Shown here piece by piece: positions 18,985 to 64,000 of a stretch of 64,000 nt of DNA. The first letter of the stretch is position 1, and every line of letters starts with the position of its first letter. This DNA is from Eledone cirrhosa. Taxonomy: Eukaryota. The notes beneath the pieces were generated by a model. It ran no database searches and was not told the origin of the DNA. It was given only the letters and a program-made list of their open reading frames with translations. The position numbers were made by a program, and so were the translations under genes. The stretch covers positions 37,076,001 to 37,140,000 of the forward strand of contig OZ024744.1 of NCBI GenBank assembly GCA_964016885.1. Direction: 5' to 3'.

Positions 18985-20107
18985 TATAAGAAAAGAAGAA
19001 GAAAAAGACATAGAAACATATATATATATAAACAATAAAAATGACAATTGAAACAATGACAAATTCCTCAATAGGGGGGAAACCTCTGAGGGTTACTCGT
19101 GGCGAAAACCACACAAAAGAGCACGGCCACCCTGGCTACCAGGGCAAGCGCCCTCTCTCAATTTTTCCATTTCTCAAACTACAGACGTATATTCAGAGCG
19201 GTCCCGTTCACTCGGACCATTCTCGCTACATACACCCACCTTTCAACAAACTTGCTAGGAGTCACCCTGATTTTCCTCTTCAAGTGAAACTTGAAAATGT
19301 TAATTAGGGATTCGCCGAAGAGGAAAGTGTCTGTCTTTAACCCTTTCAACCTTGTCCACCACACAATCTCTTTCGCCATGGCCACCAGGCAGATGAAAAC
19401 CGCCTGCTCTTCCTCCACGAAGGAAGACGGCGAGACCATCTGCACAATGGACTCAGTCGATAACCGGATCAGTCCTACACGCGACAGCAACTGTTCGACA
19501 TAGCTTCACAAGTCAGCAATGCTTGGGCACTGAACGAATGCGTGCACGACGGTTTCGTCGCTCTGCGCGCATCTCGGCTGACGGCCCTTCCGTGCTTGTA
19601 GAGCTTATCTCGAACCGGCAACGCTCCCCGATAGCACTGTCAGACCAGGGATTTTTGGAAGTTATCCATAGGCCCCGGGCTGAAAGTTCTCCGAAAAAGA
19701 GCAAACAGCTGATCTTCTTCGACGCCCAGGATCTCTCCGAGAACGTCGTCATTCTTCCCCTCTACTAGTCCGCTATAGAACGCCGAGGTGGATGTTCCAC
19801 CGATGTCAGTGTCCAGTTGAGCGCCTGGAGACATTCCAAGCGCTATCCCTCGGGCTTTTCCTGACCAAGGACAGCAGCGTCAAGGAGACGAGCTGTGGTA
19901 AAACGTGCCTGGAGAACGGCGACCACACCTGTTCACCGTCAAGGAAGCACCAGAGATGTCGCAGCCTCAGCGCATGATTGCGCATCATCAGCCATGGCAT
20001 GCCTAGACCTCCACGCAAAGAGTGTTGACAGCAGATGAACGTCTGACCATGGGAGAGCGTCCTTTCCACAAAAAGCGGAAGAGGAGGCGCTCCATTTTTG
20101 TGAGAAT
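18985..20107 (-). mobile_element. Tx1 copy T1, 5'-truncated 3' fragment
   Basis: ORF2 C-terminus (GGLGMPWLMMR, DNFQKSL, KEIVWWTRLKGL, stop at 19179). The truncated 5' end abuts (AAT)n at 20110. Confidence 0.85.
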
Positions 20108-20109
20108 TT

Positions 20110-20135
20110 ATAATAATAATAATAATAATAATAAT
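20110..20135 (+). repeat. (AAT)n spacer 1
   Basis: Direct. Confidence 0.95.
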
Positions 20136-21632
20136 GTTTTCCGTATTAACCACAAGGGTTTACATAAAGTAGACATTAAGGACAGTACAGGACAATACAG
20201 GACGGTACAAATGGGCATTTCTGCGTGTAAAAAAAACAAGAAACAGAGGATGTAATAAAATAACAAAGAAAAATTCCTCCATAGGGGGGAGAATTCCGAG
20301 GGACATTTGTGGAGAAAGCCCATTAAAAGACCACAGTGACCCTAACCACCAGGGCAAGTGCCCTCTCCCAGTTTTCCATCTTTAATTTACAGACACATAC
20401 TCAGAGAAGGCCCATTCACTCGGGCCATACTTGCTTCTCTCACCCATCTTTCAACAAAATGCTGGGAAGAGAGCACCTCCCTCTCTACCCTGATTTTCCT
20501 TTTCAAATGAAATTTGAAAAAGTTAATCAGGGCATCACCGAAGAGGTAAGTGCCCGTCTTCAGCCATTTCAAACGTGTCCACCATACTATCTCTTTCGCC
20601 ATGGCCACCAGACAGATAAAAACTGCCTGCCCTTCCCGGCTAAAGTAAGAGGGCGGGGCAATCCTCACGATGAACTCAGTTGATAGCTGGATCCGTCCTA
20701 CACGTGACAGCAGGTGTTCGACATAAACCCACAAGTAAGCAATGCTCGGACACTGGACGAGTGCGTGGAGGACGGTTTCTTCGCTCTGTGCGCATCTCGG
20801 ACATGCCCGGCTGACGGCACCTCCATGCCTGTAGAGTTTATCCCGAACTGGCAAAGCTCCCCGGTAGCACTGCCAGGCCAGGGATTTCTGGAAGTTGTCC
20901 ATAGGCTCCGGCCCGAAAGTTCTTCCGAAGAGATTGACTAGTTGATTTTCGTCGACGCCTAGAGTTTCTCCAAGTACGTCGTCGCTTTTCCCCTCCACTA
21001 ATCCTCTATAGAACGCCAAGGTGGAGTTTCCACCGATTACATTGCCCGATTGGTCTTCGCTTGACCCAGGACTGCAGCTCCGTCAAGGAGACGATCTGGG
21101 GAAAGACGTGTCTAGCAAACGGCGACCACACCTGATCACCGTCGAGGAAGAGGTGGAGATGTCGTAGCCTGAACGCGTGTCTGCGCATCATCAGTCACGG
21201 CATGCCCAGCCCTCCACGTAGCGGGTGTTGACAGCCGATGGACCGCCTGACCATCGGAGCACGTCCCTTCCACAAAAAAACCGAAAGAGCAAACGCTCCA
21301 GCGCAGTCAGGCGGGGCTTAGGATAAGGTACGACGGTCAGGCGGTAGTAGATGACGGACGCGATGTACGCGTTAGCCACCTCCGCTCGACCTTTCAGGGA
21401 TAGCTTCCTCTCGGCCCATTTCTGGGTGAGAGAAGCCACCCTGCTCGTCACCTCGTCCCAGTTTTTGTCCGTCTGGAGGTCTGGACCGAACCAGACCCCT
21501 AGCAATTTAACCGGTCCGTCCGTCCAGCGCCCGACGACGCTGTTGGACGGCATGGACCTGCCTCTCCAAGTGCCGAGCTGCAGGCCCACTGACTTTTCCT
21601 GGTTGATCATTGCTCCTGTCACCGCTTCGTAC
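20136..21632 (-). mobile_element. Tx1 copy T2 (family A), 3' 1.5 kb
   Basis: ORFs 21191..21634 and 20387..21019 (CPRC....ETVLHALVQC). The 3' UTR is closely similar to 26614-26880. Confidence 0.9.
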
Positions 21633-21650
21633 ACCGATCGAAATTATCGA

Positions 21651-24600
21651 TCAGTCAAAGAAACGAGCTGCGGAAAGGCCCGTCTGACAAACGGGGACCA
21701 CACCTGTTCACCGTTTAGGCAGAATATCTGGAGATGCCGCAGCCCCAGCGCGTGCCTGCGCATCATTAGCCACGGCATGCCCAGCCTTCTACGTAGAGGG
21801 TGCTGGCAGCACATGGACCGCCTCACCAGCGGAACCTGACCCCTCCACAAGAATTTGAAGAGGAGCCGCTCCAAGATGGCGAGGCGCGAACGGGAGCAAG
21901 GGACGACGGTCAGACGGTAGTAGATGACGGACGCGATGTACGCATTCGCCACCTCTGCACGACCTTTCAGCGATAGCTTCATCCCAGCACATTTCTGGGT
22001 GAGACAGGCTAGCCTGCCCGTCACCTCATCCCAATTCTTATCCACCTGGAGGTCTGGCCCGAACCAAACCCCTAGCAACTTTACCGGTCCGTCCATCCAG
22101 CGCCTAACGACGCTGTTGGACGGCATGGACTTGCCTCTCACGGCGCCGAGTTGCAAGCCCACAGACTTTTCCGGGTTAATTTTGCTCCCGTCAACCTTTC
22201 ATATTCCTCCAATAAGTTGCCAACCACCTCGATTTCTAAGGTTTCCGGCACCATCATGGTGATGTCGTCCGCATAAGCCGACACAGCCATTCTACGTCCC
22301 CGTTCGAGCGGGATACCCTGAACAGCTCCAGCTTCCGCAGTAAAGTCGCGAGAGTCAATACGTACAGAAGGCAGGAGTGAGGGCACCCTTGACGGACCGA
22401 TCGGGAGACCTGAAACGGTTCCGAGAGGTGGCCATTGATTTTGAACATCGAGCAGGTACCGCTGTGTATTGCAGGGATCCAGCTTCTGAAGACAAGGCCG
22501 AAGCCAGCCGCCTTGAGGACAGCCTCCGGGTACCGGTGGTCGACCCTATCGAATGCTTTCGATTGATCTAAATTGATCAGAGCCCCACCGAAGCCAGGTT
22601 TACACCCTACCCTCTCTATGATATATCGCATTAGGTGGAGATTGTCGTGTATGGACCTGGTTGGGATTGCGCAAATTTGCGCCACCGCAACCAAATCCCC
22701 ACGAAATCGCCAACCTCTTCGCTAACACCCTGGCCAAAATCTTAAACTCTGTGTAGAACAAGGTTATGGGCCTGACATTGTCTAATGTGTCCCTCTTGTT
22801 CTCGTATTTCCTTATGAGCGTCACTACGCCCCGGCTCACAGAACTGGGAATACTCCCATTTTGCTGCCAGTTGCAGTAGAAGGCTTCGAGGAGATTGGAG
22901 AACAAGTCTGGCATATTTACGTAAAGCTCGTAGGGCAGACCATCCAAACCGGGTGACTTGCGCCTCATGCAGTCGACAAGGGCATCCTGAATCTCGGCTG
23001 AAGTAATTGGGTTTCGCAGCGCCCAGCGTCAGCCGTCAGGAGTTGCGGCAAGCCATCGAGGTAGGGACTGAAGTCCGGCCAACATCTCTGACCCGCCACC
23101 TCCCCCGAACAACCGAGCAAAATGTTGGCGAAAGGCCTCACACATCCGCTTGGAATCGCTCAGCTCTTGTCCGTCTCGGTCCATCAAAGACCGAATCGTG
23201 GTTTTATTACCACGCTGCGCCTCTGCCACGCGGGCCCATCGAACACCTTTGGTTCCCTCGTTTCTCAGAGCACGCGCCTTAGCTCTGACAATGCAACCTT
23301 CGTGTTTTGCATTGAAGAAATGGTCTAATGCCATTCTCGCCGTTAGCACGTCAGTTGCAATGCCACTACCAATAGCCTCATCTAACTTATCTACCAAATC
23401 CCCCGCCTTTCTATTTTTCTCTAACGCTACTACTTTGCTAAACTCTATCGACATTACTCTAATCTCTCTTTTGAGATCCTCCTACCATCTATTGTTGACG
23501 ACTCCTCCTGTTAACTTTTTCTTAACAAAATTGTTGACCTGGTCCCTGTAAGCCTCACGTGCCGGAAATGACATGTTTAGCTTCCAGTAACCAGGTCCTA
23601 ACCTACGCGTCTTATCTAGGTCGACCATACATATCACAAACTTGTGATCTGAATAGGCGACCGTTTCAAAACGTGGGCAGCTTACACTATTTCTGTCTAT
23701 TTTCCTAATGAATATCCTGTCTATATACGATTTAGATGACCCTATGCGTTTAGCCCAGGTTCACACTGGCGCATTAGGGAAATCTAGTCGGTACCTGTCA
23801 GACAGTTGGAACTGGCTGATCAGATTCTTGAGGCTTTTGTACACCCCGCTCCTATCGGATACTCCCACACAGTCCCAGCGTGCGTCTAAGATTCCGTTCC
23901 AGTCTCCCGCTAACAGTAAAGGGCGAGACGTACCCAGAAAGTATTCTAAGCGTCTAAAGAAGTCCAGCCGTCCTGCCCCAGTAGGAGCATAGACGGCCAC
24001 CAGTCTAAAGACACCACCTTCGTTATTGTTCACGTCCAGGACCACCAACTTCCCGTCCGGGTCCCAGAAGATCGATCTTTCCTCGAGATCCAGGCCTTTC
24101 CTAAACAGCACTGCTACCCCGCCTCCCATTCCCGATCGGCTAACAGATGCAAAGATCTGATAGTCGTCGAAAATGGGGGCTAGTGCGCGCGTGTCGGAAA
24201 TCCTGGTCTCGCTGTCTGCAATTACATCCATTTCTATAGACCTGAGGTCGTTGAGCAGGTGACCCTGCTTCCAGGACGATCCCAGGCCTCGAACATTTAA
24301 CACATCCTACTCTTAATACGGCCATGTTGGCAGGTTCAACAGAGAGAGAGGAAGGTTTACTTACCTTCCGGGCTCTTGTGAAGGTCGAGTTGTTCGACCT
24401 CCATGGTTGGTGGGGTTTCTTTAAACGTCTTTAAAGTCGGTTTAACGTTCGGGGTTCCCACGTCCCGAGGAAAGCTGTCTCGGATTTTTTTTGAATATCC
24501 TGAGCGACATTCGCACCAGAACCAAATCTTCCGGCACGCGAAATTTGCTCGATTTAAAAATTTCCCCCACTTTTTTTATATTTTCAATTCGTGGTACGAG

Positions 24601-26523
24601 GGCCATCAGTTCCTTGTTGGCCCTCCTGACGAGCACAAAGTTTTGTATGTATTGTTGGTGTGATTTTATTTGTTTGCGTGGCTGTGGTAGTGATGGTTTT
24701 GGTTGTGTTGTTTCGGTTGTGTCTGTGTTTGTTGTGAGTGCTGTGTCTGTGGTTTCAGATGTTTGTGTGTATATTTGTTCTTGCGTCTGTTTGGGTTGTT
24801 TGCGTTTTGGGGATTATGGTGATGGTGATGGTGGTGTTGATGTTGGTGTTGTTGGAGAGATGTTTGCGTGGGTAGTGTCTGCGTTTTTTATTGTGGGTGA
24901 TTTTGGGCTTTGTTAATTTTTTTTTTTTCTTTTTGTGTTTCCTTTTTTGTATTTTGGGGGATTTTGGTTTTCCCTCACCTTCACTACTGGTAGATGAGGG
25001 GTCTGTGTCTGTAAGTGTGTCTGTATGTACGTTTATGGTTTTATTGGTGTGTGAATTTTGGGAGGGAGGGGGAATTTGACAGCTTTCCTCATTTCCCCCC
25101 TGGGTGGTCAATGTTGGTGGTGGTCTTTCTATTGGTGTTGTTGTTGGTAGTTTTGCCGGTGCTGGTATTGGCTGTGGTCCTCTCTCCGGCGTCGGCAGCA
25201 GTGGAGCCTTTCGACCCCTTGGCTCTTTCAGCAGTTGAGGGCAGAAGGCTCGCAAATGGGTTTATTCCCCACAAACAAAACACTGCGGCCTTTTGCCTTC
25301 GGTCATAATGTGAATGACCGTCCCATTCTGAAGGCGGATGTGGTCCGGGATTGTCTTCACATTCTCGGACCTGATCTGGAGAAGGATCTCCAGGTCAACC
25401 CCGGACCAGTCCTCTATGACCGTTCTGCTCACTTCTATAGGGACTGTATCCGTCCCCTCCACAATCACACATCGCAGAAGCCACCACATGTCAAGTCCTG
25501 GTGGGATTCTGGGAATGCGGAGACGGGCCGTTCTTTTTCCCATGTGGGATGGGTACATTATGACCTTGCTGGTTTTGCAAGGAGTCATAGCGTGTTTCAT
25601 AGCGAGGGCTTCTGACTTGAACAACACCGAAATGGTGCCGTACTGTCTGCCCCTCTCTATGTATTCGGTGTCTTCTCTGATGCACCTCAGTGCGACTTCG
25701 ACATCTTCTTGTGGGATTAAAGCTGCCCTTTTGGGTTGTGCTGAGATGCATCTATAATGTACCGTTCTGCCCTCCACTGCCTCAATAGCTTCTACCGGGA
25801 CAGTTAAGTTGGCCCAGGTTTGCTCTTGCTTGATGAGCTTCCATGCCTGGGCCAACTTTTCATCTTTGTTTGAGAGGTCCATGTTGAAGCATGGCCTCCT
25901 CTTTACTGCTACCGCAGCGAAAGTTTTCTTGTTTTCGTTGGGGCTGTTGTCGTTGTTCCTGTTGGTGCTGTTGTTAGCACTGTCGCTGTTATCATTGTTG
26001 TCTTTGTTGCCACCGTTGTTCTCGGTGCAGTTGGTATTGTTGCTGTTGGTGTTGCCGCTATTTGTTTTCATGTTAGTGGTGTTGATATTGTTGTTGTATT
26101 TGTTTGTTTTATTTGTTATCTGTATTCTCGTTGTCGCTGTTACTGTCATTTATTTCAAAATGAGAGTTCTCATTGGTATCATTCGTGTCTTTCTTTACCT
26201 TGTTTGTGGTGGTGTTTGTGTTATCAATTTGTGTTAATTTCGCTGTAGCGCTCCTCTCAACGTCCACGTCGTTGTCGCAAGACAGCCGACATATCGCTGG
26301 GGGCGTGGCTCAGCCATGTTTTTTTTTTCTTCGTAAATTTTTTAATATGTAAAAAAGTTCAAATATTTTGAAACAAAAGGCCCAAATATTATACTCTCCC
26401 CTTCACGGGGCAAAGTCTAAGGGCTTATATCCATTATACAACAAGAAATATTCAACAACAAATAATTTTAACAGGCAAATAAAGCGACTTACTGTGATCG
26501 AGCAAAATACGTCCGCTTAGACC
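21651..26523 (-). mobile_element. Tx1 copy T3 (family B): 5' UTR, ORF1 (~26317-24357), ORF2 (24325 onward), 3' end missing
   Basis: ORF1 has the CCHC knuckle KRPQCFVCGE..HLRAFC. ORF2 has APE motifs LNVRGL, SETR, VYAP, GDWN, SDHK, YWKLN and RT motifs KAFDRVDH, RQGCP, AYADD. Frameshifted. Confidence 0.92.
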
Positions 26524-26548
26524 AATAATAATAATAATAATAATAATA

Positions 26549-26613
<65 letters not shown>
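26524..26613 (+). repeat. (AAT)n spacer 2
   Basis: Direct. Confidence 0.95.
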
Positions 26614-26614
<1 letters not shown>

Positions 26615-29600
26615 CTTTCTTTATTAACCACAAGGGTTTACACAAAGTAGACATTAAGGTCAGTACAGGACAATACTGGACGGTACAAAAGAGCATTTCT
26701 GCGTGTGAAAAAAACCAAAAACAGAGGATGTAATAATAGAACAATGAAAAAATTCCCCAATGGGGGGAGACTTTCGAGGGACATTCGTAGAGAAAGCCTA
26801 TTAATAAGCCACAGTGACCCTGACCACCAGGGCAAGTGCCCCCTCGCAGTTTTCCACCTTTAATTTACAGACAGATACTCAGCAATTTAACCGGTGCGTT
26901 CGTCCAGCGCCCGACGACGCTGTTGGATGGCATGGACTTGCCACTCCAGGCGCCGAGCTGCAAGCCCACTGACTTTTTCTGGTTGATCATTGCTCCTGTC
27001 ACCGCTTCGTATTCTCTTAGTGTAGTGCCGATCGCCTCGATGTGTTTGGCGTTCGACACCACTACGGTGACATCGTCCGCATATGCTGACACGGATCTTC
27101 CGCATCCTAGTTCACGTGGGACCCCCTCAACGTCTCCAGTTTGTGCACTAATGGCTCGAGAGTCAATACGTACAAGAGGGACGAGAGGGGACATCCTTGG
27201 CGGACAGAGCGCATGATGTTGAACGGTTCCGAAAGGTGACCGTTCACTCTCACCACAGAGCAGATGTCGCCTCGTCTAATTTTCTAATTAGTTCTCCCTC
27301 TGCTCTATTTTTCTCTATTGCTAAAGACTTACTGAACCTAATGGACTCTATTCTAATCGCTCTTTTCAGAGCAAACCACCACTTGTTGTTGACGATGGCC
27401 CCCGTCAACGCCCGCTTAACTAGTTCGCTAATCCAGTCTCGTCTAATTTTCTAATTAGTTCTCCCTCTGCTCTATTTTTCTCTATTGCTAAAGACTTACT
27501 GAACCTAATGGATTCTATTCTAATCGCTCTTTTCAGAGCAAACCACCACTTGTTGTTGACGATGGCCCCCGTCAACGCCCGCTTAACTAGTTCGCTAATC
27601 CAGTCTCTGTAGGCCTTGCGCGCTGGTAAGGACGCGTTTAGCTTCCAGTAACTGGGTCATCGACTATGAAGCCTATCTAAGTCAAGCACACAGATCACGA
27701 ATTTGTGGTCCGTGTAGCTGTCCAGGAAGATGGCCCGTATGGCGAGATCCAAACCTCTCCGAAAAAGCACAGCAACTCTTCCCCCGATCCAGGACGGCTG
27801 GGAGATGCGTACACATCGTAGCCGCCGAAGATCGGTGCGAAAGCCCGTGCTTCGGAGATTCTGGTCTCGCTGATGGCCACTACATCTATGTTTAGTGAAC
27901 TGAGGTCGTTGAGCAGGTGGCCCTGAATCCATGACCACCCCAAGCCACGCGCATTTATGCTGCCTATTCTGAATGAGGTCATGTTGAAATGGATTGGAAA
28001 AGATGGGAAGACCACTTACCTTACTTCTCGTAGAGGAAGGATGGTTTCGCCATCCTTTTCACTGCTTGTGGCCTCCTCCGGAAGGATGTCCTTATAAATC
28101 CTCCTGGAGAGTGCTTGTCGGAAGTCTCCGATGTGCTTGAGGAATTTTTGTTTTAGTGTCGTGTACGTTTTCTGCGTGATGTTAGTGATTTGTATGTGTG
28201 GAGGTGGTGTGAACTTTTGGGTTGTTGTGTAGTTTTTTTCTGTGATGTTGGTGTTGTGTTGGATGTAGTGTAATAATTGCTTGTTGTTCAAATTTAATGC
28301 TGTGTAGTGTGTATCGTTTTGGTTGTTTTGTTTTGTTTGCGTTTGTTGTGGGTTTGTTTCTGTTTCGCGCTTTGATGACTTTTGTGGTGTTGGTGATGGT
28401 GGTGTTGGGGTTAATGATGGTGATGGTGTTGGTGTTTGTGGTGATGGGGTTGGTGATGCTGGTGTGGATGGTGGCATAGCTGTCCTAACTTTTTTGTCTG
28501 TTAATTTATTTGTTTCCCTCTGTATTTTGTTTTTTGGAGGGGAAGGAAGGGGATTTTTTCTTTTTTGGTTTCTTTTTCTTTTTTTCTTTTTTTCCGATAC
28601 CGTTTACCACTCGTCGTCACAATCTGTCTCCAGTTGATGTAGGTCGGGGAGTGGAAAATCCTCCACAGGCGTTGGTTTTGGTGGTTGTGGGGTGGTGGAC
28701 GGTGTAGGCGCTGGTGCAATTTCTGGCGCGTTGGGTGATGGTGGTGTTGGTTTTGCTACTGTTGCTGGGGTTGTTGCTGTTACAGTTGCTTCTGTTGTTG
28801 CTGCTACAGTTGTTGCTGCCATTTCTGCTGCTGGTGGTATTGATGGTTGAGTCACTGGGGTGGGTAAGAGAGGAGGCCTCAACCTTTTAGCCTGAGGGCA
28901 GAAAGCCCTTAGGTGGGCTACTTCACCACAAACGACACACCTAGGCCGTCTGCCCTCGACGATTACGGTGAGGTTGCAGCCGTCAGTGAGGTCTATTACC
29001 TCTGGGATCTCCTCAATGCTTTTTTGGTCCGCTTGGATCAGGAGCTCCTTCCCAGATCCGGACCAGTTCTCCTGCTTTTCTTTCGCTATTTCGATCATCT
29101 TGATGTTGGCTTCGATGCCGGCGAGGACGGCAGCCATTAGCAAGGGAATTTCGATGGCCGGTGGAACGTGGGTCACTCTGATCTTCACGAGTCTCTGGCC
29201 ACAATAGTTTGGGACGAGTGTGAAGTCGTCACTTTTTAATGGGGCCATGGAGTGTTCTCTGGCTTCCTTTGGTGTTTCAAAGAACACGTCCACGGTTCCA
29301 TATTTCTGCCCACGTCTGGTGTGGGTTTCTTTTACCCACACATGTCCCAAAGCTTTTTGGATTTGGGACTCGGATGCCCATTCCACTCGGCGCGATTTTA
29401 GGTTAATCGTCCGATAAGACACGGTGCATAGGCACCCATGCTCCATTTTATTAGGTGTGTGGGGGGGAGGCTGACCCTGTACCCATCTTTCTTTACCATT
29501 TTTTTGGCTTCTTGTAATTCCTCCTGAGTTACCTGGAATGCTTCGCTTTTTTTGCTACTCTGACAAAAGACAGGATTTTCTTATTCTCATTGTTGCTGTT

Positions 29601-30154
29601 GTTGTTATCGTTATTTTTGTTATTGTTAATTTTATTTTCAGTTGTGGTGGTGGCGTCAGTGGTGTTCGGTGTGGAACAGTTCATTTTGGCTGAATTCGTT
29701 TCGATATCACGAGATAATTTATTTTTTTCTTTTGTTTCTGTTGTCGCTGTGGTGGTTGTGGGCGTGGCGGCTTCAACACCTGCAGTCATTGGTAATGGCG
29801 GGAAATGAACGTCTGCCTGAGACAAATTTAAAATATTGCTACTGCTTATATTTTTAGTGTTGTCAAACGTAGTAATATTTGCAATGGTCGTGTCGGTGTG
29901 AGGTGTTAGTTTGTGAGGAAGGCTCTCAGCTACTGGGTTCAGCTGTGAGTCGGCCATGATTTTTCAAAGAAAATTATAAAAGTTTAAATTTTGGGCTCAA
30001 GGCCCCAATCTTTTTGAGTGGCCTTATCAGAAAACAATGTATGTGCACTTATATACAGTTAACAATAAACATTTCCCATAAATATCAATTTTAAACAACT
30101 GAAAATAACAAACCTGCGGAGCTCACGATTATACGATTTACTACGTAGATCGCC
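26614..30154 (-). mobile_element. Tx1 copy T4 (family A): both ends present, ORF1 (29957-28016) largely complete, ORF2 (27982-26865) with three large internal deletions
   Basis: ORF1 RRPRCVVCGEVAHLRAFC. ORF2 jumps IFLD->SYTDHK, KLDE->[10 protein letters not shown] and PVKLL->SICL* relative to the sister copies. Confidence 0.9.
27271..27607. repeat. 167-bp tandem duplication inside T4
   Basis: ctcgtctaattttc... begins at 27271 and again at 27438, with CTC shared at the junction. Confidence 0.9.
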
Positions 30155-30163
30155 AATAATAAT

Positions 30164-30224
<61 letters not shown>
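30155..30224 (+). repeat. (AAT)n spacer 3
   Basis: Direct. Confidence 0.95.

Positions 30225-30226
<2 letters not shown>

Positions 30227-36112: not shown

Positions 36113-36201
<89 letters not shown>
36113..36201 (+). repeat. (AAT)n spacer 4
   Basis: Direct; it produces the artefactual poly-Ile in ORF 36101. Confidence 0.95.
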
Positions 36202-36203
<2 letters not shown>

Positions 36204-37467
36204 ACAAAAAAATGAAGGAATTGTTAAGAACTGAATACATTCGGAGAGTAAGGAGCGTATTGAAGTCTCATCTGAACAGCAGAAATGCCATAAGCGCAGT
36301 AAATTCCCGAGCTGTGTCTATTATTAGGTACAGTGCGGGAATTCTGAGATGGAATGTTGCTGAACAAAAAGAAATGGATAGGAAGACTAGGAAGCTATTG
36401 ACTATCTACAACATGTTCCACAAGAGGAGTGATGTCGATAGACTCTACCTAAGGAGATCTGAGGGTGGAAGAGGTCTTATCAGCATAGAGGACTGTGTTC
36501 AGATGGAGAAAAACAACCTATACAAATACGTGACCTATAGTAAGGAGCCAATGCTCAGAGGTGTACTGAAGGAGGGGACAGTAGGCCAGGGGATATCCAA
36601 GGAGGAAATAACATCAAGGAGGAAGAGCAGCCTTAAGGGAAAATCCCTTCATAGTACCTTCTTTGAGAAAACTGAATTTAGAGATCCACAGACATGGAAC
36701 TGGTTGAGAAGAGGAGACCTCAAAAAGGCTACAGAAGGAATGCTAATGGCTGCGCAGGAGCAGGCCCTCAAAACGAAGTGGTTGAAGCACCATATCTACA
36801 AGGAGGAGGCTAGCCCACTGTGCAGGATCTGTGGAGAGAGAGAGGAGACTGTGGCTCACATTGTGTCCGAGTGTAAACACCTAGCCCAGACCCACTATAA
36901 GGGCTGGAGACACGATGTGATGGGCAGGGTGATCCACTGGCACCTGTGCAAAGTAAACAATCTACCACATTCTGAGAAATGGTATGAGCATAGGCCAGAG
37001 GCGGTGATGGAGAACAGTCAGGTGAAGGTGCTGTGGGATTTTAGGATACAGACGGACAAAAAACTGGAACACAATAGACCTGACCTGGTGGTTGTGGACA
37101 AAGAAAAAAGATCGTGCCTGATTGTGGATGTGGCCTGCCCGTTCGACACGAGAGTGCAAGAGAAGGAGAGGGAGAAAATTAACCGATACCAGGACCTAAA
37201 GTGGGAGGTGAAAAGGATTTGGAACTGCCATGAAGTCAAAGTGATCCCGATTGTCATAGGCGCACTGGGGACTATCTCCAAAGGTTTCCAGGGATGGTTA
37301 AAGAAAATCGGCCCCTTCACGCTTTTTGGAACGCTTCAAAAGGCATGCTTGCTTGGAACGGCAAGAACCCTCCGATACGTCCTGAATATCTGAGGCTGCA
37401 GGTAGTGGCTTGATATTCAATCCAACGGACTTTCCAGTTAACCAACATCAATGACTGAGATTCAAGG
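36202..37467 (+). mobile_element. R4/Dong-clade copy D1, 5'-truncated (thumb, CCHC, RLE, 3' UTR)
   Basis: Nearly identical to 41140-42405. Motifs CRIC..ETVAHIVSEC, RHD, RPDLVV, DVACP. Confidence 0.92.
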
Positions 37468-37479
37468 AATAACAATAAC

Positions 37480-37549
<70 letters not shown>

Positions 37550-37555
37550 TAATAA
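37468..37555 (+). repeat. (AATAAC)2(AAT)n spacer 5
   Basis: Direct. Confidence 0.95.
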
Positions 37556-37721
37556 GGGAAGAAGACGCACGAGGTGACGGAGGTCATGAAATCGCTCCCG
37601 TAAGTTTTGAATTTTTAACATATTTAAATCATTTGTGAAATAACAACTCTTAGTACAAATGCTACGTAAAGCACCCGGCTTGAGCCCAAAAAAAATTCGG
37701 ACCCAAAATATATTGTTATAA

Positions 37722-42442: not shown

Positions 42443-42444
42443 TT

Positions 42445-46673: not shown

Positions 46674-46674
<1 letters not shown>
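42445..46674 (+). mobile_element. R4/Dong-clade copy D3, older sister of D2; ORF ~43214-46600 broken by frameshifts and stops
   Basis: ORF pieces 43255..44517, 44544..44768, 44811..45659, 45710..46189 and 46211..46600 are colinear with the D2 protein. Confidence 0.92.

Positions 46675-46710
<36 letters not shown>
46675..46710 (+). repeat. (AAT)n spacer 7 (tail-to-tail junction D3/T6)
   Basis: Direct. Confidence 0.95.
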
Positions 46711-46712
<2 letters not shown>

Positions 46713-52566: not shown

Positions 52567-52630
<64 letters not shown>

Positions 52631-52647
52631 GGGAATAATAATGATAA
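52567..52647 (+). repeat. (AAT)n spacer 8 (head-to-head junction T6/D4)
   Basis: Direct; interrupted by GGG at 52631-52633. Confidence 0.95.
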
Positions 52648-55600
52648 GGGAAGAAGTAGCACGTGGTGGATAGAATGGTATGAAATCGCTCCCGTAAGTT
52701 TTTGATTTTTAACATATTTAAAACAATTGTGATATAACAATTCTTAGTACAAATGTTACATAAAGCACCAAACGCAACTCTCAGATAATTCGGATCCATA
52801 ATATCCTGTTATATCGCTCAAATATTCAATTTTGTATTATAAATTTTATATTCCAAAAAGAAAATGGTTATAAATGGAAGAACAGCCAAATAACAGCAAT
52901 TTCACCAACACCACAAACTAGATACACCACCTATCCAATCACCACTCTGTGTACACTAAATACAACAGCCATATAACGGCAATTTCACCACCACCACCAC
53001 CAATCCCAGCATAATAATAATAACTACTATTATTGTATCTCAAGTTTTCTCAAAATGTTTAATTCAAATATTAAGAAAATATGTCAACACATATATTAAA
53101 CATGCACGACAAACCGCATAGATACACAGATCAAACAAACGCATACTACTACAGTCTATTCAACAGCACTCAGTAACGACAACGCCATCACTATAGTCAA
53201 CCACGCCACCACTCTATCATTGCTACCACTATCACATCAACGCCGCCACCACTCCTTCATTGCTACCACCACTATTCCCCCACTACCTTCTGTTAACTTA
53301 AGAAAGGGGAAGGTGGCGGTATCATGAGACAAGGGAGAGGCTAGCAAAAGATATAAATAGACTGTCTTAGTGACTCGGTCAAACGCCAAAGACTATGACA
53401 CTGCTGGCTCCCCCCTTCCCACCAACAATAGAAAAAGCCCCAACACCACCACCGACATAGCCAACAACAATAACAGGCAACCTCAGCAAAAAGTATATTA
53501 TATTATTAATAATAATTTCATTCTTAAGCCACGCAATGCTCACATTAAGGAACCACTCATGATAATAACAATTTAAAAAACAACAAAAAAGAAAACACCG
53601 TGACCAAGAAATACCGGGATGGCGGCCAGCGGGGAATAGCCGTGTCTCTAGGGGAGGACGACTCATCTAGTCTTGGTTGACACTCGTCCTAGAAGTGGTA
53701 ACACGAAATGATTACCCCTTGGGGGTTAAGGATAAAACGCGAGAAAATAAAGTAAATGTCAAATGATAAAATCTCATATCGGATCGGCCGTCACCCGGGT
53801 CAAAATGGCCGCGTCCCTCAGAGAGGAACCAGTCTGGGTTCGAAAAATCAGCTAATGGTTCAAACCTTCCCATCACTTCGGAGCTGGAGACCTCCCATAT
53901 CCGGAATACTTCTAATGTTGGCCCTCCATGCTCACCACCAAGAAATCCAAAGAAAAAGAGAGGAAAATGGTCAAAGGAAGATAATAAAGAAGTCCCTGAT
54001 GCTTTCTACACTGCCATGTACTACCCATCAAATATATCGAATACAGAACAGACATATATCAACTGGAAAAATAAACATCCCGAAAACAGAGGCTATATTG
54101 ACAGTAACAAACTAGCCAATATACGAAGAAATATTGTAAAAAAAAAGTTACTAAATGATATAGAAATTGATCAGTTCAAGCTAGTAGCACAAAGTCAGCG
54201 AAGGGAAAATGAAACATGTGTCAGTGAAAACGAGGTAAATTGTAACACTTCGAATCCCAGGGTTGGGACGGAATCACTGACAACAGAACAAATTAAAGAA
54301 AGGATCGAAAAAGTGGAGGGAGTGCATGCTCAAGATGAAACTGAAAATGAAAACAATGAAATCGTAAATGATAAAGAAATGAATGAGAATGAACTTGCCA
54401 ACTTGAAGGATGAAATTATGATCGAATGGATGAAAATGAAAGAATCTGACATGGGGGTACGAGATAACCTCTCTAAGATCCAGAACTCTAAACAGAACCA
54501 AAAGATAATACACAAGACTAACATAATTCTCAAAAACATTATCATCACAAACAAACTAAAAATTACTGATTTAAATCATCTCTATTATTCATCGGCTAAA
54601 GTCACCACTCATTTATGTAGAGTGAAAATGAAAAAACAGAGGAATTCCCACAAGAATTCTACTTGGCAAGAGAACATCAATCGCCAAATAAACCTTCTCC
54701 GATCTGACATAGAAATTTTAACAAACTACAAAGTAGGTGAACATGTTAAACAAACTAAACTTAGAAAATTGAAAAGAAAGTACAGTATAAAATCAACAAG
54801 TGACATAGACATGCTAATAGAAATAATCAAGCAAAAAGTGTCGGCCAAAGCTGCTCGTATAAGGCACTTTGAAAAACGATCTAGATTCTATAAGGACAAT
54901 AATATGTTCAAAAACAACCAAAGAAACTTCTACAGAAAAATTGGCAAGTCAACAAAAATTGCTAAATCAATACCACCCAAGGAGGGAGTGAAAGAATTCT
55001 GTGAAAAGATCTGGGCCGAAGAAAAAGTTCATAATATACATGCCCCATGGATAGACAGACAAATGAAAGATACAGCTTACCTTGAGGAACAAATATGGGA
55101 AAATATAACAGTTGAAGAGTTGCGTTTGGCTCTTAGAAAAATCAGCAAATGGAAATCCCCAGGAAAAGACAAAATACAAAATTTTTGGATAAATGATTTC
55201 ACAGAGTCTCATGAGCTGTTAGCCCAAATTTACAATGAAATAGTTAAGGAGCCAGAAAAGATACCATCATGGCTAGTTAACGGCATTACATTCCTACTTC
55301 CGAAGAATGATGAGACAAACAATCCCCAAAATTACAGACCGATAACTTGCTTGACAACAATGTATAAAATTTTAACATCAGTCCTAACTGAATATACATA
55401 TAACAAATGATCTATTTCCCAATGACCAGAAAGGGTGTAAACGAGGCTCATATGTCTGTAAGGATCAGCTTTGGGTTAACAAAATGATACTGGAAGATTG
55501 TCATAATAGACACAAAAATCTATCAATTGCTTGGATAGATTATAAAAAAGCATTCGATAGTTTGCCACACAGTTGGATTGAAAAATACTTAGAGATTTTC

Positions 55601-57523
55601 AAAATATCTCCCGCTGTCAGGAGGTTCTTGTCATTCAGTATGAAGACATGGAAAACGACACTCCTTTTGAATAGTGAAAAGGAATCACTGGAACCTGGAC
55701 AAGTTAATATTAATTGTGGAATTTTTCAGCGTGACTCTTTATCACCGCTTTTATTCTGCATCGCACTTATACCATTAAGTAAAATGCTCAATGAAACAAA
55801 ACCATTAATCACTTGTCTATGACAAAACCATTAATCACGTGTTCTACATGGATGACCTGAAACTATTTGCAAAAAATGATGAACAATTGCAAGGGCTATT
55901 ATCCACTGTTGAGCAGTTCAGTGATGACATTAAACTGGAGTTTGGACTAGATAAATGCGCCAAAGCACCGTTAACCAGAGGAAAGCTGCTGAAAAGTTCA
56001 GACATTAATCTTGATCGGGGGAATGTGATAAGAGAACTTGATCAAGAGGAAACTTACAAATATCTAGGTGTTTGTGAAGGAGACGGAATCAAGCACTCGA
56101 CAATGAGGGAAAGGATAAGGAAGGAATGTTACTGCAGAGTAAGAGCAATCTTAAGAACGGAATTGAATGCAAGGAATAGGATCGATGCCATAAACACGCT
56201 TGCCATACCAGTAGTAACCTACAGTTACAATGTCATCAACTGGTCAAGCACAGAGATCCATAGGCTCGATACAAAAATTCGAAAATTCTTAACCATGCAC
56301 AGAATGCATCACCCTAAGGCAAATACAGATAGAATATATCTCCCTAGGAAAGAAGGAGGACATGGGTTAATCCAGTTAGATATTGCGTTGAAAACTGCAA
56401 CAATTGGATTATCTACATATCTAAGAGAATCACCTGATTGGATGACCAAACTCGTTTTGAAACACGAAAGCATCAAAAGATCATATTCCATTACAAAAGA
56501 TGCACAAAGATACAGTAATGAACTACAAATTTCAGAAGTCCCATTTACTGCTGAAATGGAAAACACAGAAAAAGCAAAGCAGGTAAAAGTAACTGCAAAG
56601 AAAGAACTGCTACAGAAACTGGCTAAGAAATGTCAAGAAAAGCCTCTGTATGTGAAATACCCAGAACGAGCTAACAATTCTGATGCTGACAAAACTTTAA
56701 CCTCTGGACTGAAATCGGAGACTGAAGGACTGATTATATCAGCACAATATCAGTGTCTGCCAACAAAAAATTTCCAAGCCAGCATAATAAAAAATGGATG
56801 CAGCCCATTATGCCGTGTATGTAAAAAACAACCAGAGACCATTGACCATATAATTTCAATGTGCAGTCCTATAGCTCCAACCGAAAACCTAAACAGGCAT
56901 GACAGAGCTGCACAATACATACATTGGATAATGTGTAAGCATTTTGACCTGTCCCATCAAAAGAATTGGTGGGAGCATCAACAACCTCCCATACTTGAAA
57001 AAGATCACATCTCAATCTTGTGGAACTTTAGCATCCAAACAGACCGAAAAATAGATGCAAATAGACCTGATATAATACTGAAGGACTTTAAAAAGAGGGT
57101 ATGCCTGCTAATTGATATGTCCGTTCCAATAGACAAGAATGTATCTATAAAAACATTTGAAAAATTGATAAGTATAAGGACCTGGAGATAGAAATTGGAA
57201 AAATGTGGAAATTGAGAACTAAAACAATACCAGTGGTTGTAGGCGCTCTAGGAATGATACCTAAGGGGTCTAATGATTACTTATCCCAAATCCCAGGAAA
57301 CCCGCGTATAGGAGAAATACAAAAGATAGTACTAATGGGAACTGCCCATCTACTAAGGAAGATTCTGTCAATATAAGTACATCACAAGTCAAAACACCTA
57401 AAGATGCATGTGTGTGTATGTATATTCTTTCTTGAACATGGCGGAACTTGTTGTCTCTTGAGGTCACTGGTTGTAACTTGGTGATAACTCGTATGAACAT
57501 AAAGCAAGATAAATGCAACTGTT
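52648..57523 (+). mobile_element. R4/Dong-clade copy D4, a second divergent AT-rich family; ORF ~53756-57376 degenerate
   Basis: KSPGKD, NYRPITCL, WIDYKKAFDSLPH, GIFQRDSLSPLLF, FYMDDLKL, YKYLG, CRVC...ETIDHIISMC, RHD, NRPDII, IDMSVP. Confidence 0.9.
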
Positions 57524-57546
57524 ATAATAATAAAAATAATAATAAT
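57524..57546 (+). repeat. (AAT)n spacer 9 (tail-to-tail junction D4/T7)
   Basis: Direct; short and imperfect. Confidence 0.85.
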
Positions 57547-60500
57547 GATTTAATTTATTGGCCACAAGGGCCGACATATAGGGGACAATACAAAAGACTG
57601 GGACATTGGGGTTTTACAAAAAAATCGAGTAAACAATATGAATCACAATAACAAAGTAACAAGAAAATTACAAGAAAAAATTCCCCAATATGGGGGGGGA
57701 TGACCACCCAGGGTTCGCTCAAGTACCCCACCAATCCTGAACGACCTGACGCTTCGAGAGCAACCCCTCTCCTCCTCAAATTTACCTACCTACAGCCGCA
57801 TGACCAGAGTAGGCCCACTCACACGGGCCATTCTCGCCACATTCACCCACCTTTCAGTAAATGTACTGGGGGGCAGCACTTCTCTCTCTACCCTCACCTT
57901 CCTTTCCAAGTGAAACTTGAAAAAGTTGATGAGGGATTGGCCGAAGAGAAAAGTGTCTGTCTTCAGTCCTTTCAACCTGGTCCACCATACAACCTCTTTC
58001 GCTACTGCCACCAGACAGAGAAAAATTGTCTACCCTTCCTGACCAAAAGAAGGCGGCGGGTCGACCTTCTCTATGGACTCGGCCGATAGCTGGATCCGTT
58101 CTACACGCGACAACAGCTGTTCAACATAACTCCACAAGTCAGTAATGCACGGACACTGGACGTGTGCGTGCAGAACGGTTTCGTCGCTCTGCGCGCATCT
58201 CGGGCAGGTCCGTCTGACAGCAATTCCGTGCCTGTAGAGTTTATCTCGAACCGGCAGTGCGCCCTGGTAACACTGCCAAGCGAGGGATTTTGGGAAATGA
58301 TTCATCGTCCCCGCCTCGAAAGACTTCCGGTACAGTCTGGTTAGTTCGACTTCATTGACTCCCAGAGCCTCTCCGAGTGCGTCGTCGCACTTGCCCACCA
58401 ATAATCCTCTATAGAACTCGAGAGTGGAAGTTCCATTGACCGCATTGCCCGCCTGGTAGAGGGCAGTTAGGGCCTGGCAACATTCCAGATGCCAGTCACT
58501 CAGTCTCGGTCTCTTCTTGACCCAGGACTGCAGCTGAGTCAAAGAAACGAGCTGCGGAAATGTCAGTCTGACAAACGGCGACCACCGTTCACCGTTTAGG
58601 CAGAATATCTGGAGATGCCGCAGCCTCAGCGCGTGCCTGCGCATTAGTAGCCACGGCATGCCCAGCCCTCCACGTAGAGGGTGCTGGCAGTAGATGGACC
58701 GCCTCCCTAGCGGAACCTGACCCCTCCACAAGAATTTGAAGAGGAGCCGCTCCAAGATAGCGAGGCGCGAACGGGGGCAAGGGACGACGGTCAGACGGTA
58801 ATAGATGACGAACACGATGTACGCGTTCGCCACTTCCGCTTGACCTTTCAGTGATAGCTTCATCTCAGCCCATTTCTGGGTGAGACTGGCTACCCTGCCC
58901 GTCACATCGTCCCAATTCTTATCCACCTAGAGGTCTGGCCCGAACCAAATCCCTAGCAACTTTACCGGTCCGTCCGTCCAGTGCCTAACGACGCTGTTGG
59001 ACGGCATGGACTTGCCTCTCCAGGTGCCGAGTTGCAAGCCCACCGACTTTTCCGGGTTAAGTTTTGCTCCCGTCAACCTTTCATATTCCTCCAATAAGTT
59101 GCCGACCACCTCGGTTTCTGAGGTTTCCGACACCATCACGGTGATGTCGTCCGCATAAGCCGACACAGCCTTTCCGCGTCCCGGTTCGAGCGGGATGCCC
59201 TGCAACAGCTCCAACTTCCGTAGTAAGTGCTCGAGAGTCAATACGTACAGAAGGGAGGCATGAGGGCACCCTTGACGGACCGATCGGGAGACCTGAAACG
59301 GTTCCGAGAGGTGGCCATTAATTTTGACCATCGAGCAGGTGCCGCTGTGCATTGCAGCGATCCAGCTTCTGAAGACAGGGGCGAAGCCAGCCGTCTTGAG
59401 GACAGTCTCCAGGTACCGATGGTCGAACCTATCGAATGCTTTCGATTGATTTAAATTGATCAGAGCCCCACCGATGCCAGGTTTACACCCTACCCTCTCT
59501 ATGATGCATCGCATTAGGTGGAGGTTGTCGTGTATGGACCTGGTTCGGATTGCGCAAGTTTGCGCCTCCCCAACCAAATCCCCGACGACACGCCAACCTC
59601 TTCTCTAACACCCTCGCCAAAATCTTAAACTCTGTTTTGAGCAGAGTTATGGGCCTGAAATTGTCTAATGTGTCCCTCTTGTTCTCGTCTTATCAACGTC
59701 TCTATGCCCCGGCTCACGGAACTGGGAATACTCCCGTTTTGCTGCCGGTTGCAGTAGAGGGCTTCGAGGAGATTGGAGAACAAGTCTGGCATATTTACGT
59801 AAAGCTCGTAGGGCAGACCATCCAAACCGGGTGACTTGCGCCTCATGCAGCCGACAAGGGCATCCTGAATCTCGGCTGAAGTAATTGGCCTTTCGCAGCG
59901 CCCAGCGTCAGCCGTCGAGAGTTGCGGCAAGCCATCGAGGTAGGGACTGAAATCCTCCACCATCTCTGACCCGCCACTTCCCCCGATAAACCGAGCAAAA
60001 TGTTGGCGAAAGGCATCACACATCCTCTTGGAATCGCTGAGCTCGTGTCCGTCGCGGTCCGTCATAGACCGAATCGTGGTTTTATTACCACGTTGCGCCT
60101 CTGCCACGAACAGCTTTGGTTTCCTCGTTTCTCAGAGCACGTGCCTTAGCTCTGACTAATAGATTACCCACGCGCCTTAGCTCTGACATAGATTACCCTA
60201 TGCGGGTAGCCCAGGTCCACACTGGCGCATTAGGGAAATCTAATCGGTACCTGTCAGACAGTTGGAACTGGCTCATCAGGTTCATCAGGTTCTTGAGGCT
60301 TTTGCACCCTCCTATCGGATGCTCCCACACAGTCCCAGCGTGCGTCTAAAATGCCGTTCCAGTCCCCTGCTAACAGTAAAGAGCGAGACGTGCCCAGAAA
60401 GTCTTCCAGGCGTCTAAAGAAGTCCGGCCGTCCTTCCCCAGTAGGAGCATAGACGGCCACCAGTCTAAAGGCACCACCTTCGTTATTGTTCACGTCCAGG

Positions 60501-63006
60501 ACCACCAACTTCCCGTCCGGGTCCCGGAAGATCGACCTTTCCTCGAGATCCAGGCCTTTCCTAAACAGCACTGCCACCCCGTCTCCCATTCCCGGTCGGC
60601 TAACAGATGCAAAGATCTGATAGTCGTCGAAAATGGGGGCTAGTGCGCGCGTGTCGGAAATCCTGATCTCGCTGACGGCAATTACATGCATTTCTAGAGA
60701 CCTGTGGTCATTAAGCAGTTGACCCTGCTTCCAGGACGATCCCAGGCCTCGAACATTTAAACATCCTATTCTTAATACGGCCATGTTGGCAGGTTAAAAA
60801 GAGAAAGAGGAAAGATTTACTTACCTTCCGGGCGCTTGTGAAGGTCGAGTTGTTCGACCTCCATAGTTGGTGGGGTTTCTTTTGGGAACCCCTTTAAAAG
60901 TCTTAAAGTTGGTCTTACGTTCGGGGTTCCCACGACCGGATGAAAGCTGTCTCGTATTTCTTTGTATAATTCGATAGAACATTCGCACCAGAACCAAATC
61001 TTCCGGCACGCCAAATGTGCTCGATTTAAAAATGTCCCCCTCTTTTTCTATATGTTCACTTCGTGGTACGATGGCCATCAGTTCCTTGTTGGCCCTCCTG
61101 ACGAGCACAAAGTTTTGTATGTTTTGTTGGTGTGATTTTATTTGTTTGCGTGGCTGTGGTGGTGATGGTTTTGGTTGTGTTGTTTCGGTTGTGTCTGTGT
61201 TTGTTGTGAGTGTGGTGTCTGTGGTTTCAGATGTTTGTGTGTATATTTGTTCTTGCGTCTGTTTGGGTTGTTTGCGTTTTGAGGATTCTGGTGATGGTGA
61301 TGGTGGTGTTGATGTTGGTGTTATTGGAGAGATGTTTGCGTGGGTGGTGTCTGCGCTTTTTATTGTGGGTGATTTTGTGCTTTGTTGATTTTTTTTTTCT
61401 TTTTGTGTTTCCTTTTTTGTATTTTGGGGGATTTGGGTTTTCCCTCACCTTCACTACTGGTAGATGAGGGGTCTGTGTCTGTAAGTGTGTCTGTATGTAT
61501 GTTTATGGTTTTATTGGTGTGTGTATTTTGGGAGGGAGGGGGAATTTGACAGCTTTCCTCATTTCCCCCCTGGGTGGTCAATGTTGGTGGTGGTCTTTCT
61601 ATTGGTGTTGTTGATGGTGGTTTTGCCCGTGCTGGTGTAGGTTGTGGTCCTCACCCCGGCGTCGGCAGGAGTGGAGCCTTTCGACCCCTTGGCTCTTTCA
61701 GCAGTTGAGGGCAGAAGGCTCGCAAATGGGTTTATTCCCCACAAACAAAACACTGCGGCCTTTTGCCTTCGGTCATAATGTGAATGACCGTCCCATTCTG
61801 AAGGCGGATGTGGTCCGGGATTGTCTTCACATTCTCGGACCTGATCTGGAGAAGGATCTCCAGGTCAACCCCGGACCAGTCCTCTCTGGCCATTCTGGTC
61901 ACTTCTATAGGGACTGTATCCGTTCCTTCCACAATCACACATCCCAGAAGCCACCACATGTCAAGTCCTGATAGGATTCTGGGAAAGCGGCGACGGGACG
62001 TTCTTTTTCCCGTGAGGGAGGGGTACAATATGACCTTGCTGGTTTTGCAAGGAGTCATATCGTGTTTCATAGCGAGGGATTCTGACTTGAACAACACCGA
62101 AATGGTGCCGTACTGTCTGCCCCTCTCTATGTATTCGGTGTCTTCTCCGAAGCACCTCAGCGCCACTTCGACATCTTCTTGTGGGATTAAAGCTGCCCTT
62201 TTGGTTTGTGCTGAGATGCATCTATAATGCACCGTTCTGCGCTCCACTGCCTCAATAGCTTCTACCGGGACAGTTAAGTTGGCCCTGGATTGCTTCTGCT
62301 TGATGAGCTTCCATGCCTGGGCCAACTTTTCATCTTTGTTTGAGAGGTCCATGTTGAAGCATGGCCACTTTTTTTATGCTGCTGCTGCGAAAGTTTTCTT
62401 CTTGTTTTCGTTGGGGGTGTTGTTGTCGTGGTCGTTGTTCTTGTTGGTGTTGTTGTTAGCACTGTCGCTGTTATCATTGTTGACTTTGTTGACACCGTTG
62501 TTCTCGGTGCAGTTGGTATTGTTGCTGTTGGTGTTGTCGCCATTTTTTTCATGTTAGTAGTGTTGATATTGCTGTTGCATTTGTTATTTTTTTTTTATAT
62601 CTGTATTTTCGTTGTCGCTGTTACTGTCATTTTTTTAAAAATGAGAGTTCTCATTGGTATCATTGGTGTCTTTGTTTACATTGTTTATGGTGGTGTTTGT
62701 GTTATCAATTTGTGTTAATTTCGCTGTAGCGCTTCTATCAAATTCTACCTCGTTGTCGCACGACAGCCGACATATCGTTGGGGGGCGTGGCTCAGCCATG
62801 TTTTTTTTTCTCCGTATATTTTTTAACATGTAAAAAAAAAAGTTCAAATATTTTGGCCAAAAGGCCCAAATATTATACTTTCCCCTTCACAGGGCAAAGT
62901 CTAAGGGTTTATATCCCTTACACAACAATAAATATTTAACAACAAATAATTTTAACAGGCAAATAAACGACTTATTGGGAGCGAGCAAAATACGTCGGAT
63001 TAGACC
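57547..63006 (-). mobile_element. Tx1 copy T7 (family B): both ends present, ORF1 62799-60817, ORF2 60784-57790 with a ~440-bp deletion
   Basis: Colinear with T3 in the 5' UTR, ORF1 and ORF2; AYADD; 3' motif CCCTTGTGGCCAATAAA. Confidence 0.92.

Positions 63007-63039
<33 letters not shown>
63007..63039 (+). repeat. (AAT)n spacer 10
   Basis: Direct. Confidence 0.95.
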
Positions 63040-63041
<2 letters not shown>

Positions 63042-64000
63042 TTTCATTTATTGGCCACAAGGGCCGACATATAGGGGACACTACAAAAGACTGGGACAAT
63101 GGGGTTTTACAGAAAAATCGAGTAAACAATATGAATAACAATAACAAAGTAACAATAAAGTAACAATAACATTACAACAAGAAGATAATTCCCCAATAGG
63201 GGGAATGACCAACTTGGGTTCGCTCAGATACCCCACCAGTCCTGAACGAACCGACGCTTCGAGAGCACCCTGGAAGGGCACCCCTCTCCTCTTCAACTCT
63301 ACCTACCTATAGCCACATGACCAGAGTAGGCCCACTCACACGGGCCATTCTAGCCACATTCACCCACCTTTCAGCAAATGTACTGGGGGGGGGGGGCAGC
63401 ACTTCTCTCTCAACCCTCACCGTCCTTTCCAAGTGAAACTTGAAAAAGTTGATGAGGGATTGGCCGAAGAGAAAAGTGTCTGTCTTCAGTCCTTTCAACC
63501 TCGTCCACCATACAAACTCTTTCGCTACTGCCACCAGACAGGAAAATTGCCTGCTCTTCCTGGCCAAAATAAGGCGGCGGGTCGATCTTCACTATGGACT
63601 CGGTCGATAGCCGGATCCGTTCTACACGCGACAACAGCTGTTCAACATAACTCCACAAGTCAGTAATGCACGGACACTGGAAGAGTGCGTGCAGAACGGT
63701 TTCGTCGCTCTGCGCGAATCTCGGGCAGGTCCATCTGACAGCACTTCCGTGTCTGTAGAGTTTATCTCGAACCGGCAGTGCCCCCCGGTAGCACTGCCAA
63801 GCGGGGGATTTTTTGAAATTATCCATCGTCCCCGCCTCGAAAGTCCTCCGGTACAGACTGATTAGTTCTACTTCGTTGACTCCCAGAGCCTCTCCGAGTG
63901 CGTCGACGCACTTGCCCACCAATAATCCTCTATAGAACTCGAGAGTGGAAGTTCCACTTACCACATTGCCCGCCTGGCAGAGGGCAGTGAGTCACTGGCA
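63040..64000 (-). mobile_element. Tx1 copy T8 (family B), 3' end; continues beyond the window
   Basis: ORFs 63410..63964 and 63307..63567 match the T7 C-terminus; same 3' UTR. Confidence 0.9.

Follow-up and report, generated by a model that had tools for sequence, protein, structure and literature searches.

Tx1-type and Dong-type LINEs share (AAT)n arrays in opposite orientations in the Eledone cirrhosa genome

The window analysed here, a stretch of 64,000 nucleotides on a 136-Mb contig (C28) of the 3.0-Gb Eledone cirrhosa assembly, was found to contain LINE retrotransposons arranged end to end. The array began at position 18960 and extended about 5 kb beyond the window end to about 69285 (50 kb); a sequence-only reading, which had given it 45 kb or more at 18985..64000, located it properly but drew its limits too narrowly. 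Self-comparison, Pfam searches and tiling with natural full-length copies resolved twelve elements in the window, eight on the minus strand from the L1/Tx1-type LINE families T0-T3 and four on the plus strand from the R4/Dong-type LINE families D1 and D2. With four T families and two D, the array held six in all, where at least five had been proposed. The chance of twelve copies sorting by orientation in this way at random was about 0.0002. Ten of the 11 junctions between elements in the window consisted of (AAT)n. The 64-kb window had 16 runs of (AAT)3 or longer on the plus strand and none of (ATT)3 or longer; 14 of the 16 made up the ten junction tracts, and the other two lay within the D2 5' region. 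Tiling of 18960-69285 with natural full-length copies from other loci revealed no host DNA, nested foreign repeat or copy in discordant orientation. The end-to-end order of twelve elements with one non-AAT junction, the placement of all Tx1 copies on the minus strand and all R4/Dong copies on the plus strand, and the lack of unique host DNA and nesting had therefore been read correctly. The claim that all eight Tx1 copies encode an APE was not upheld, since two of them were short 3' pieces and Pfam recognized an endonuclease in three ORFs of the window.

In the following map, all T elements are on the minus strand, and all D elements and AAT tracts are on the plus strand. The first element was a 5'-truncated T0 piece (18960..20109) that had lost its tail and the final ~90 bp, both of which were retained in 24 other copies of the family. 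Because of this loss, no tract was found at the left edge; the proposal that the array lay inside one (AAT)n agreed with the junctions but was not supported at this edge. The T0 piece was followed by an (AAT)8 tract (20110..20135) and the 3' 1.5 kb of a T1 copy (20136..21631). At the tract-less junction (21632..21650), this 5'-cut T1 copy was joined through a short, partly palindromic filler to a T3 copy with APE and RT pieces (21651..26523), which had an intact 5' end and lacked about 1 kb at the 3' end; the junction looks like the scar of a later deletion. An (AAT)30 tract (26524..26613), a T1 copy with both ends, deleted internally at three places and carrying a 167-bp duplication (26614..30154), and an (AAT)23 tract (30155..30223) came next, followed by a near full-length T2 copy of 5.9 kb (30224..36114), which shared 97% identity with an intact copy from a different chromosome (L169). 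An (AAT)29 tract (36115..36201) lay head to head between the 5' ends of this copy and of a very young, 5'-truncated D1 copy of 1.27 kb (36202..37467), which matched copies on other chromosomes with 99.6% identity. Beyond an imperfect (AAT)29 tract (37468..37555), a full-length D1 copy (37556..42417) contained an unbroken frame of 1141 codons (38906-42331) and a 327-bp duplication in the 5' region, and an (AAT)4 tract (42418..42429) separated it from a D1 copy (42430..46674) with a broken frame and without the first ~180 bp. An (AAT)12 tract (46675..46710) was placed tail to tail between this copy and a full-length, frame-broken T2 copy (46711..52566), and an imperfect (AAT)26 tract (52567..52647) head to head between the 5' ends of the latter and of a full-length, frame-broken D2 copy (52648..57520). 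After a short imperfect AAT tract, again tail to tail (57521..57546), a T3 copy with both ends and a ~440-bp internal deletion (57547..63006) and an (AAT)11 tract (63007..63039) were found. The last T copy, a full-length T3, started at 63040, continued through the window end (64000) and stopped at 68917; beyond it came a tract, then a SINE, a T1 3' stub and (AAT)4, up to 69285.

The T2 copy on the other chromosome (L169) carried an unbroken ORF1 and an ORF2 of 1140 residues with APE, RT and zinc knuckle. The Pfam domains PF03372, PF00078 and PF13966 were identified in the intact T ORF2, whose best PDB match was L1 ORF2p (E 4e-56, whereas R2 reached only E 9e-19), and the catalytic residues of the T nuclease aligned. 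T ORF1 had no Pfam match, and a CCHC knuckle of the form C-x2-C-x4-H-x4-C was visible in it; an ORF1 with such a zinc knuckle is a feature of the Tx1 clade. Named relatives of the T proteins were from Argonauta, Octopus bimaculoides and Acanthosepion. The D elements had a single ORF, in which RT was followed by CCHC and a PD-(D/E)xK-like nuclease, without an APE. In the 1141-codon frame of D1, RT, the CCHC knuckle and a PD..D restriction-like nuclease motif were found, with R2 as the best solved match, and D2 showed the same domain layout at 27-40% amino-acid identity to D1. The close homologues of D (40-66% identity) had no informative names. The names Tx1 and R4/Dong are putative assignments made from domain anatomy and targets. 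The D elements had the target trait of the Dong group, a TAA repeat with TAA on the sense strand, and AAT was found at T flanks (51/51 5' termini and 49/53 3' termini) well within the range of over 20% of flanks that defines a target preference according to Kojima (PMC4494074). At their 5' ends, T0, T3, D1 and D2 all had a GC-rich head of ~35-45 bases, then the word GTAAG and a run rich in T, which could represent a splice donor or a promoter element. D1 and D2 also shared their first ~110 bases (72-85%; 37556-37660 versus 52648-52755 and L090-L100), and in several copies the D2 5' region was joined to D1 sequence (L090-L100).

For the census of termini across the genome, loci outside the window were fetched, and copies at least 85% identical were deduplicated by flank. 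The AAT call was lenient (two AAT units in 27 bp), and the loci came from best-hit searches, which favoured young copies. All 51 full-length T 5' ends were at AAT, as were 49 of the 53 T 3' ends (one T 3' end was in an AAG run), 66 of the 68 D 3' ends and 26 of the 32 D 5' ends (four at AAG, two at none of these), and no T or D terminus in this census was at ATT. One D row scored as ATT was located at an internal join. Of 12 rows that had looked discordant under a preliminary labelling of the ends, most turned out to be internal matches or low-complexity sequence, one was an inverted T piece and one a SINE. The 5' flanks were thus AAT and not unique sequence genome-wide, many truncation junctions included, the orientation of T and D was fixed genome-wide, and the earlier statement that repeat is left on both sides of each insertion proved right for both groups. 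AAT was present at 42 of 65 internal 5'-truncation junctions in D and 30 of 68 in T, versus 3.8% of random 27-bp windows. These internal 5' ends are informative because the flank there cannot derive from the element's own end. Many, but not all, of those without AAT (38/68 T and 23/65 D) were internal deletions, inversions or ends of reference pieces. The head-to-head tracts at 36113-36201 and 52567-52647 cannot be the tail of either neighbour. AAT is a target of these elements and not just a tail, and both groups insert in (AAT)n across the genome with fixed polarity and repeat on either side. The specificity is relaxed: some copies were found in AAG or AAC runs, and one T2 copy was in a (TTC)n run.

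Several other features were seen at these loci. A polarity switch at L150 and L155, with a SINE or T end in ATT orientation next to an AAT-oriented block, probably reflects small inversions. To the left of the tract at L012, L013, L023 and L024, the 3' end of a further element was found in D polarity, with a poly(A) run and then AAT. A LINE 3' end with a short AAT/AAC tail, which we take to be RTE-like from its C-terminal motif, adjoined a T 5' end at L172:8045-9499 and L059.

The same junction types at over 200 termini also bear on the possibility that the assembly created the array by wrongly joining sequences at AAT tracts. Short-read data of other samples (contigs and RAD-seq) contain the families but do not span the tracts, which leaves some room for such mis-joins. 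The array, however, lies inside the 136-Mb contig with no gap within it, its copies are distinct, and many of its tracts are just 12-40 bp long; false joins should, moreover, have arisen at the abundant TA repeats as well, but the AAT families were not seen there. We regard an artefact as very improbable.

The focal array was not the only one. Four other arrays of ~33-50 kb, which had been picked for two closely spaced matches, showed the same polarity; at the edge of the array on C3, an opposite-oriented T-like piece with 71% identity was noticed. Beyond the tract of 29 other T2 5' ends, two of which belong to one duplicated block, there were 17 T or D elements, 8 SINEs, 1 RTE-like LINE and 3 unassigned sequences, as judged by eye. 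A sample of 400 kb, made up of 40 segments of 10 kb chosen at round coordinates and mainly from the largest chromosomes, contained ~20.6 kb of young T and D sequence (a rough figure of ~5%) and ~24.5 kb of more divergent T-like copies. Clustering was thus seen as T/D neighbours at 17/29 T2 5' ends versus the ~5% T and D background, with the reservation that the neighbours were counted by eye. In the focal array, most copies showed 81-93% identity to one another, and same-family pairs 88-93%. The exception was a D1 pair with 99.6% identity, the members of which were no closer to each other than to copies on other chromosomes (99.5-99.6%); local duplication is not needed as a source of the D1 copy at 36202-37467, for which equally close copies exist on other chromosomes. 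The identity to the nearest copy ranged from 89.6 to 99.6% within the focal array, so the copies differ in age, and their truncation points varied. Growth of the array from the inside outwards was considered and dropped: the youngest copies of the focal array were in its middle (Spearman -0.85, permutation p 0.0002), but no such trend was found in five other arrays (rho -0.48 to +0.16, not significant).

Tandem duplication also enlarges some arrays. Six full-length D2 copies, 99.8-99.96% identical, were arranged head to tail with (AAT)7-8 spacers (L215-L218, G000:C2:353611524-353641000), which is either tandem amplification or an assembly effect, and a mixed T/D block was repeated ~24 kb apart with 99.6% identity over 15 kb (L220-L224, G000:C4:42935001-42980000), one of its two T2 copies having a 1.5-kb deletion. 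Such cases are what would be expected if the arrays were mostly the product of recombination or tandem duplication via AAT tracts, with few fresh insertions. The divergence of the same-family pairs in the focal array, the D1 pair being equally close to copies on other chromosomes, and the different truncation points argue against this explanation, and we consider it improbable as a general account.

In target-primed reverse transcription, the nicked strand, which is complementary to the element's RNA, serves as the primer. The repeat on the sense strand is (TTA)n for T copies and (TAA)n for D copies. The opposite polarity of T and D is likely due to nicking of opposite strands by their nucleases: cleavage by the T APE would fall on the AAT strand, that by the D restriction-like nuclease on the ATT strand, and in each case the nicked strand would prime reverse transcription. 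Each insertion would split the tract and leave usable tract on either side, so that the number of targets would rise with occupancy and the arrays would feed themselves. Later deletions would erase some tracts, and tandem duplication would extend some arrays. We infer the strand and position of the nick, the specificity of the nucleases and the self-feeding growth from sequence comparison. With good confidence, we interpret the focal array as a set of copies that inserted separately, from four T and two D families with fixed opposite polarity, likely through opposite-strand nicking.

The choice of the target may come partly from pairing of the RNA tail with the primer. The main rival to targeting by the nucleases extends this role: with loose nucleases, the target would be set mainly by the RNA tail, (UUA)n or (UAA)n, as it pairs with the nicked primer strand, and the polarity would follow from the tail alone. 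Both T and D end in the repeat itself, and AAG and AAC runs are also targeted, which fits tail pairing. A further point on this side is the specificity loop predicted for the T nuclease, which is as long as that of L1, with nine residues between the anchors, whereas Tx1L has eleven (PMC1950540). The endonuclease of Tx1L was nevertheless sequence-specific in vitro (PMC1950540), and the TTA and TATC families described below sort by protein clade. Additional evidence came from an abundant SINE of ~190 bp with tRNA-like boxes (identified by eye) and an (ATT)n tail (L189:6076-6265 and L031:4954-5109). Among 24 copies of the SINE, 8 were flanked by unique target site duplications, which usually ended in AAT-like letters, as tail pairing would predict. 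AAT on both sides was found for just 6 of the 24, a weak association with tracts compared with the T 5' ends, and the frequent location of a SINE with the same tail at unique sites suggests that the tail alone gives no strict targeting. Target choice mainly by the tail appears possible but rather unlikely, and tail pairing and nuclease targeting may act together. In a shuffle test, the last 43 bases of the SINE proved similar to the T 3' end, with p ~0.003 in the best pairs and weaker values in the others, but showed no similarity to the D or RTE-like end. The SINE may be mobilized by the Tx1-type lineage, as has reportedly been proposed for SINEU and Tx1-Mar. The SINE tail was rejected as the founder of the focal array: no split target duplication was found in the 24 SINE copies, and the SINE at L046 arrived after the T copy.

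The more divergent T-like copies were flanked by (AGAT)n, which is (TATC)n on the sense strand. The 5' ends of these sister families were at AGAT at 18 of 20 loci, and the 3' flanks were mostly AGAT, with some (AT)n. A second array of sister Tx1-type families, all on the minus strand and separated by (AGAT)n spacers, was located at ~78470-90600, 15-27 kb past the window end (L032-L033); with further (AGAT)n loci at L206, L207, L177, L179 and L199, the (TATC)n preference was genome-wide. A tree was built from the C-terminal third of 29 of the 80 matches, chosen to cover the families, and 7 unnamed homologues. The TATC families grouped as one clade (100/100), placed together with two TTA groups in a single lineage (100/99); monophyly of the TTA families was seen in 12% of bootstrap trees. 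A T-like LINE piece in the window (11936-13965, minus), outside the array and without an AAT tract, fell into the TATC clade. The use of TTA by the Tx1-type elements is likely the result of their own target shift because the sister branch in the same genome uses (TATC)n, whereas the TAA polarity of the Dong-type elements was likely inherited. The APE proteins of the TTA and TATC sisters were ~65% identical in the C-terminal third. In the nuclease, a hairpin loop has been linked to target choice (PMC1950540); at its tip, almost every TTA copy had M or I, and the three TATC copies that could be read had S or N, a difference that serves only as a lead to a candidate target determinant.

The reading of the locus as a shared niche agreed with the two-sided repeat and the fixed polarity, but it was incomplete with regard to the many arrays, tandem duplication, the SINE and the (TATC)n branch. 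In a broader scenario, which we favour slightly, a cephalopod Tx1-type radiation split into TTA and TATC branches, and the TTA branch met the Dong target from the opposite strand; together with the SINE, they would have built self-extending arrays that make up several percent of the 3-Gb genome. The formation of a new target by each insertion is a possible reason for very large blocks of transposable elements. The results also provide the insertion sites of two of the main active LINE classes of octopods, which are absent from the available parts of octopus repeat annotations. As of 2013, the mechanism of microsatellite targeting was not well understood (PMC3812793). Here it is directly testable, since natural unbroken ORFs exist for one T and one D family and opposite-strand cuts are predicted on one substrate. 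If the scenario is true, the close TTA/TATC sister pair is a natural experiment on target change of an APE. A practical caution is that, in these animals, repeats may often flank markers based on AAT or AGAT.

Among the known systems, the Dong-R4 and L1-Tx1 classes of Octopus vulgaris are abundant and recently active in octopods, and the available parts of the octopus repeat papers describe no target preference, polarity or shared arrays for Dong or Tx1 (PMC13282606, PMC8967140). In the literature we searched, Tx1 elements specific for TTA or TATC did not turn up, nor did co-targeting by Tx1 and Dong or by APE and RLE clades, consistent with the sequence-only reading, for which no (TAA)n-specific Tx1 group was known to share sites with Dong; Repbase, supplements and Kojima and Fujiwara 2004 may hold such cases. 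Dong on TAA, Tx1 at microsatellites and the sharing of a repeat in opposite polarity are known, whereas the targets of T and the opposite-strand sharing across clades appear to be undescribed. Dong, DongAg and DongBg belong to the R4 clade and use TAA microsatellites, in a snail host among others (PMC3812793, PMC3774820). The D elements resemble Dong in their single ORF with RT, C-terminal CCHC and restriction-like nuclease, in the TAA target and in the position of TAA, which precedes the element on the sense strand just as it does in the 5'-junction primer for Dong (PMC3774820). They differ in that two families (27-40% identical) occur together in long mixed arrays. Silkworm Dong has an HDV-like 5' ribozyme, for which D gave no match with Rfam or with a crude descriptor having no positive control. 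For the Tx1 elements Kibi and Koshi, the repeats are named on the sense strand. The reported Tx1 targets are (TC)n for Kibi, (TTC)n for Koshi and (TTCC)n/(TTTC)n for crocodilian Tx1 (PMC4494074). The T families share with all of these the L1-group ORF2 (APE-RT-knuckle), the CCHC ORF1 and the insertion in short repeats; unlike the families covered in the available text of that source, they target (TTA)n and have a (TATC)n sister, live in a cephalopod host and hold their target in common with an RLE clade. The closest parallel in arrangement is SART and TRAS, two LINE groups that form arrays in opposite orientations in silkworm telomeric repeats (PMC10088271) and are both of the R1 clade and the APE type (PMC4640811). 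Like them, T and D insert in one simple repeat in opposite directions and build arrays. In contrast to the telomeric SART and TRAS, an APE clade and an RLE clade are combined here, and the shared target is an interstitial trinucleotide repeat on many chromosomes.
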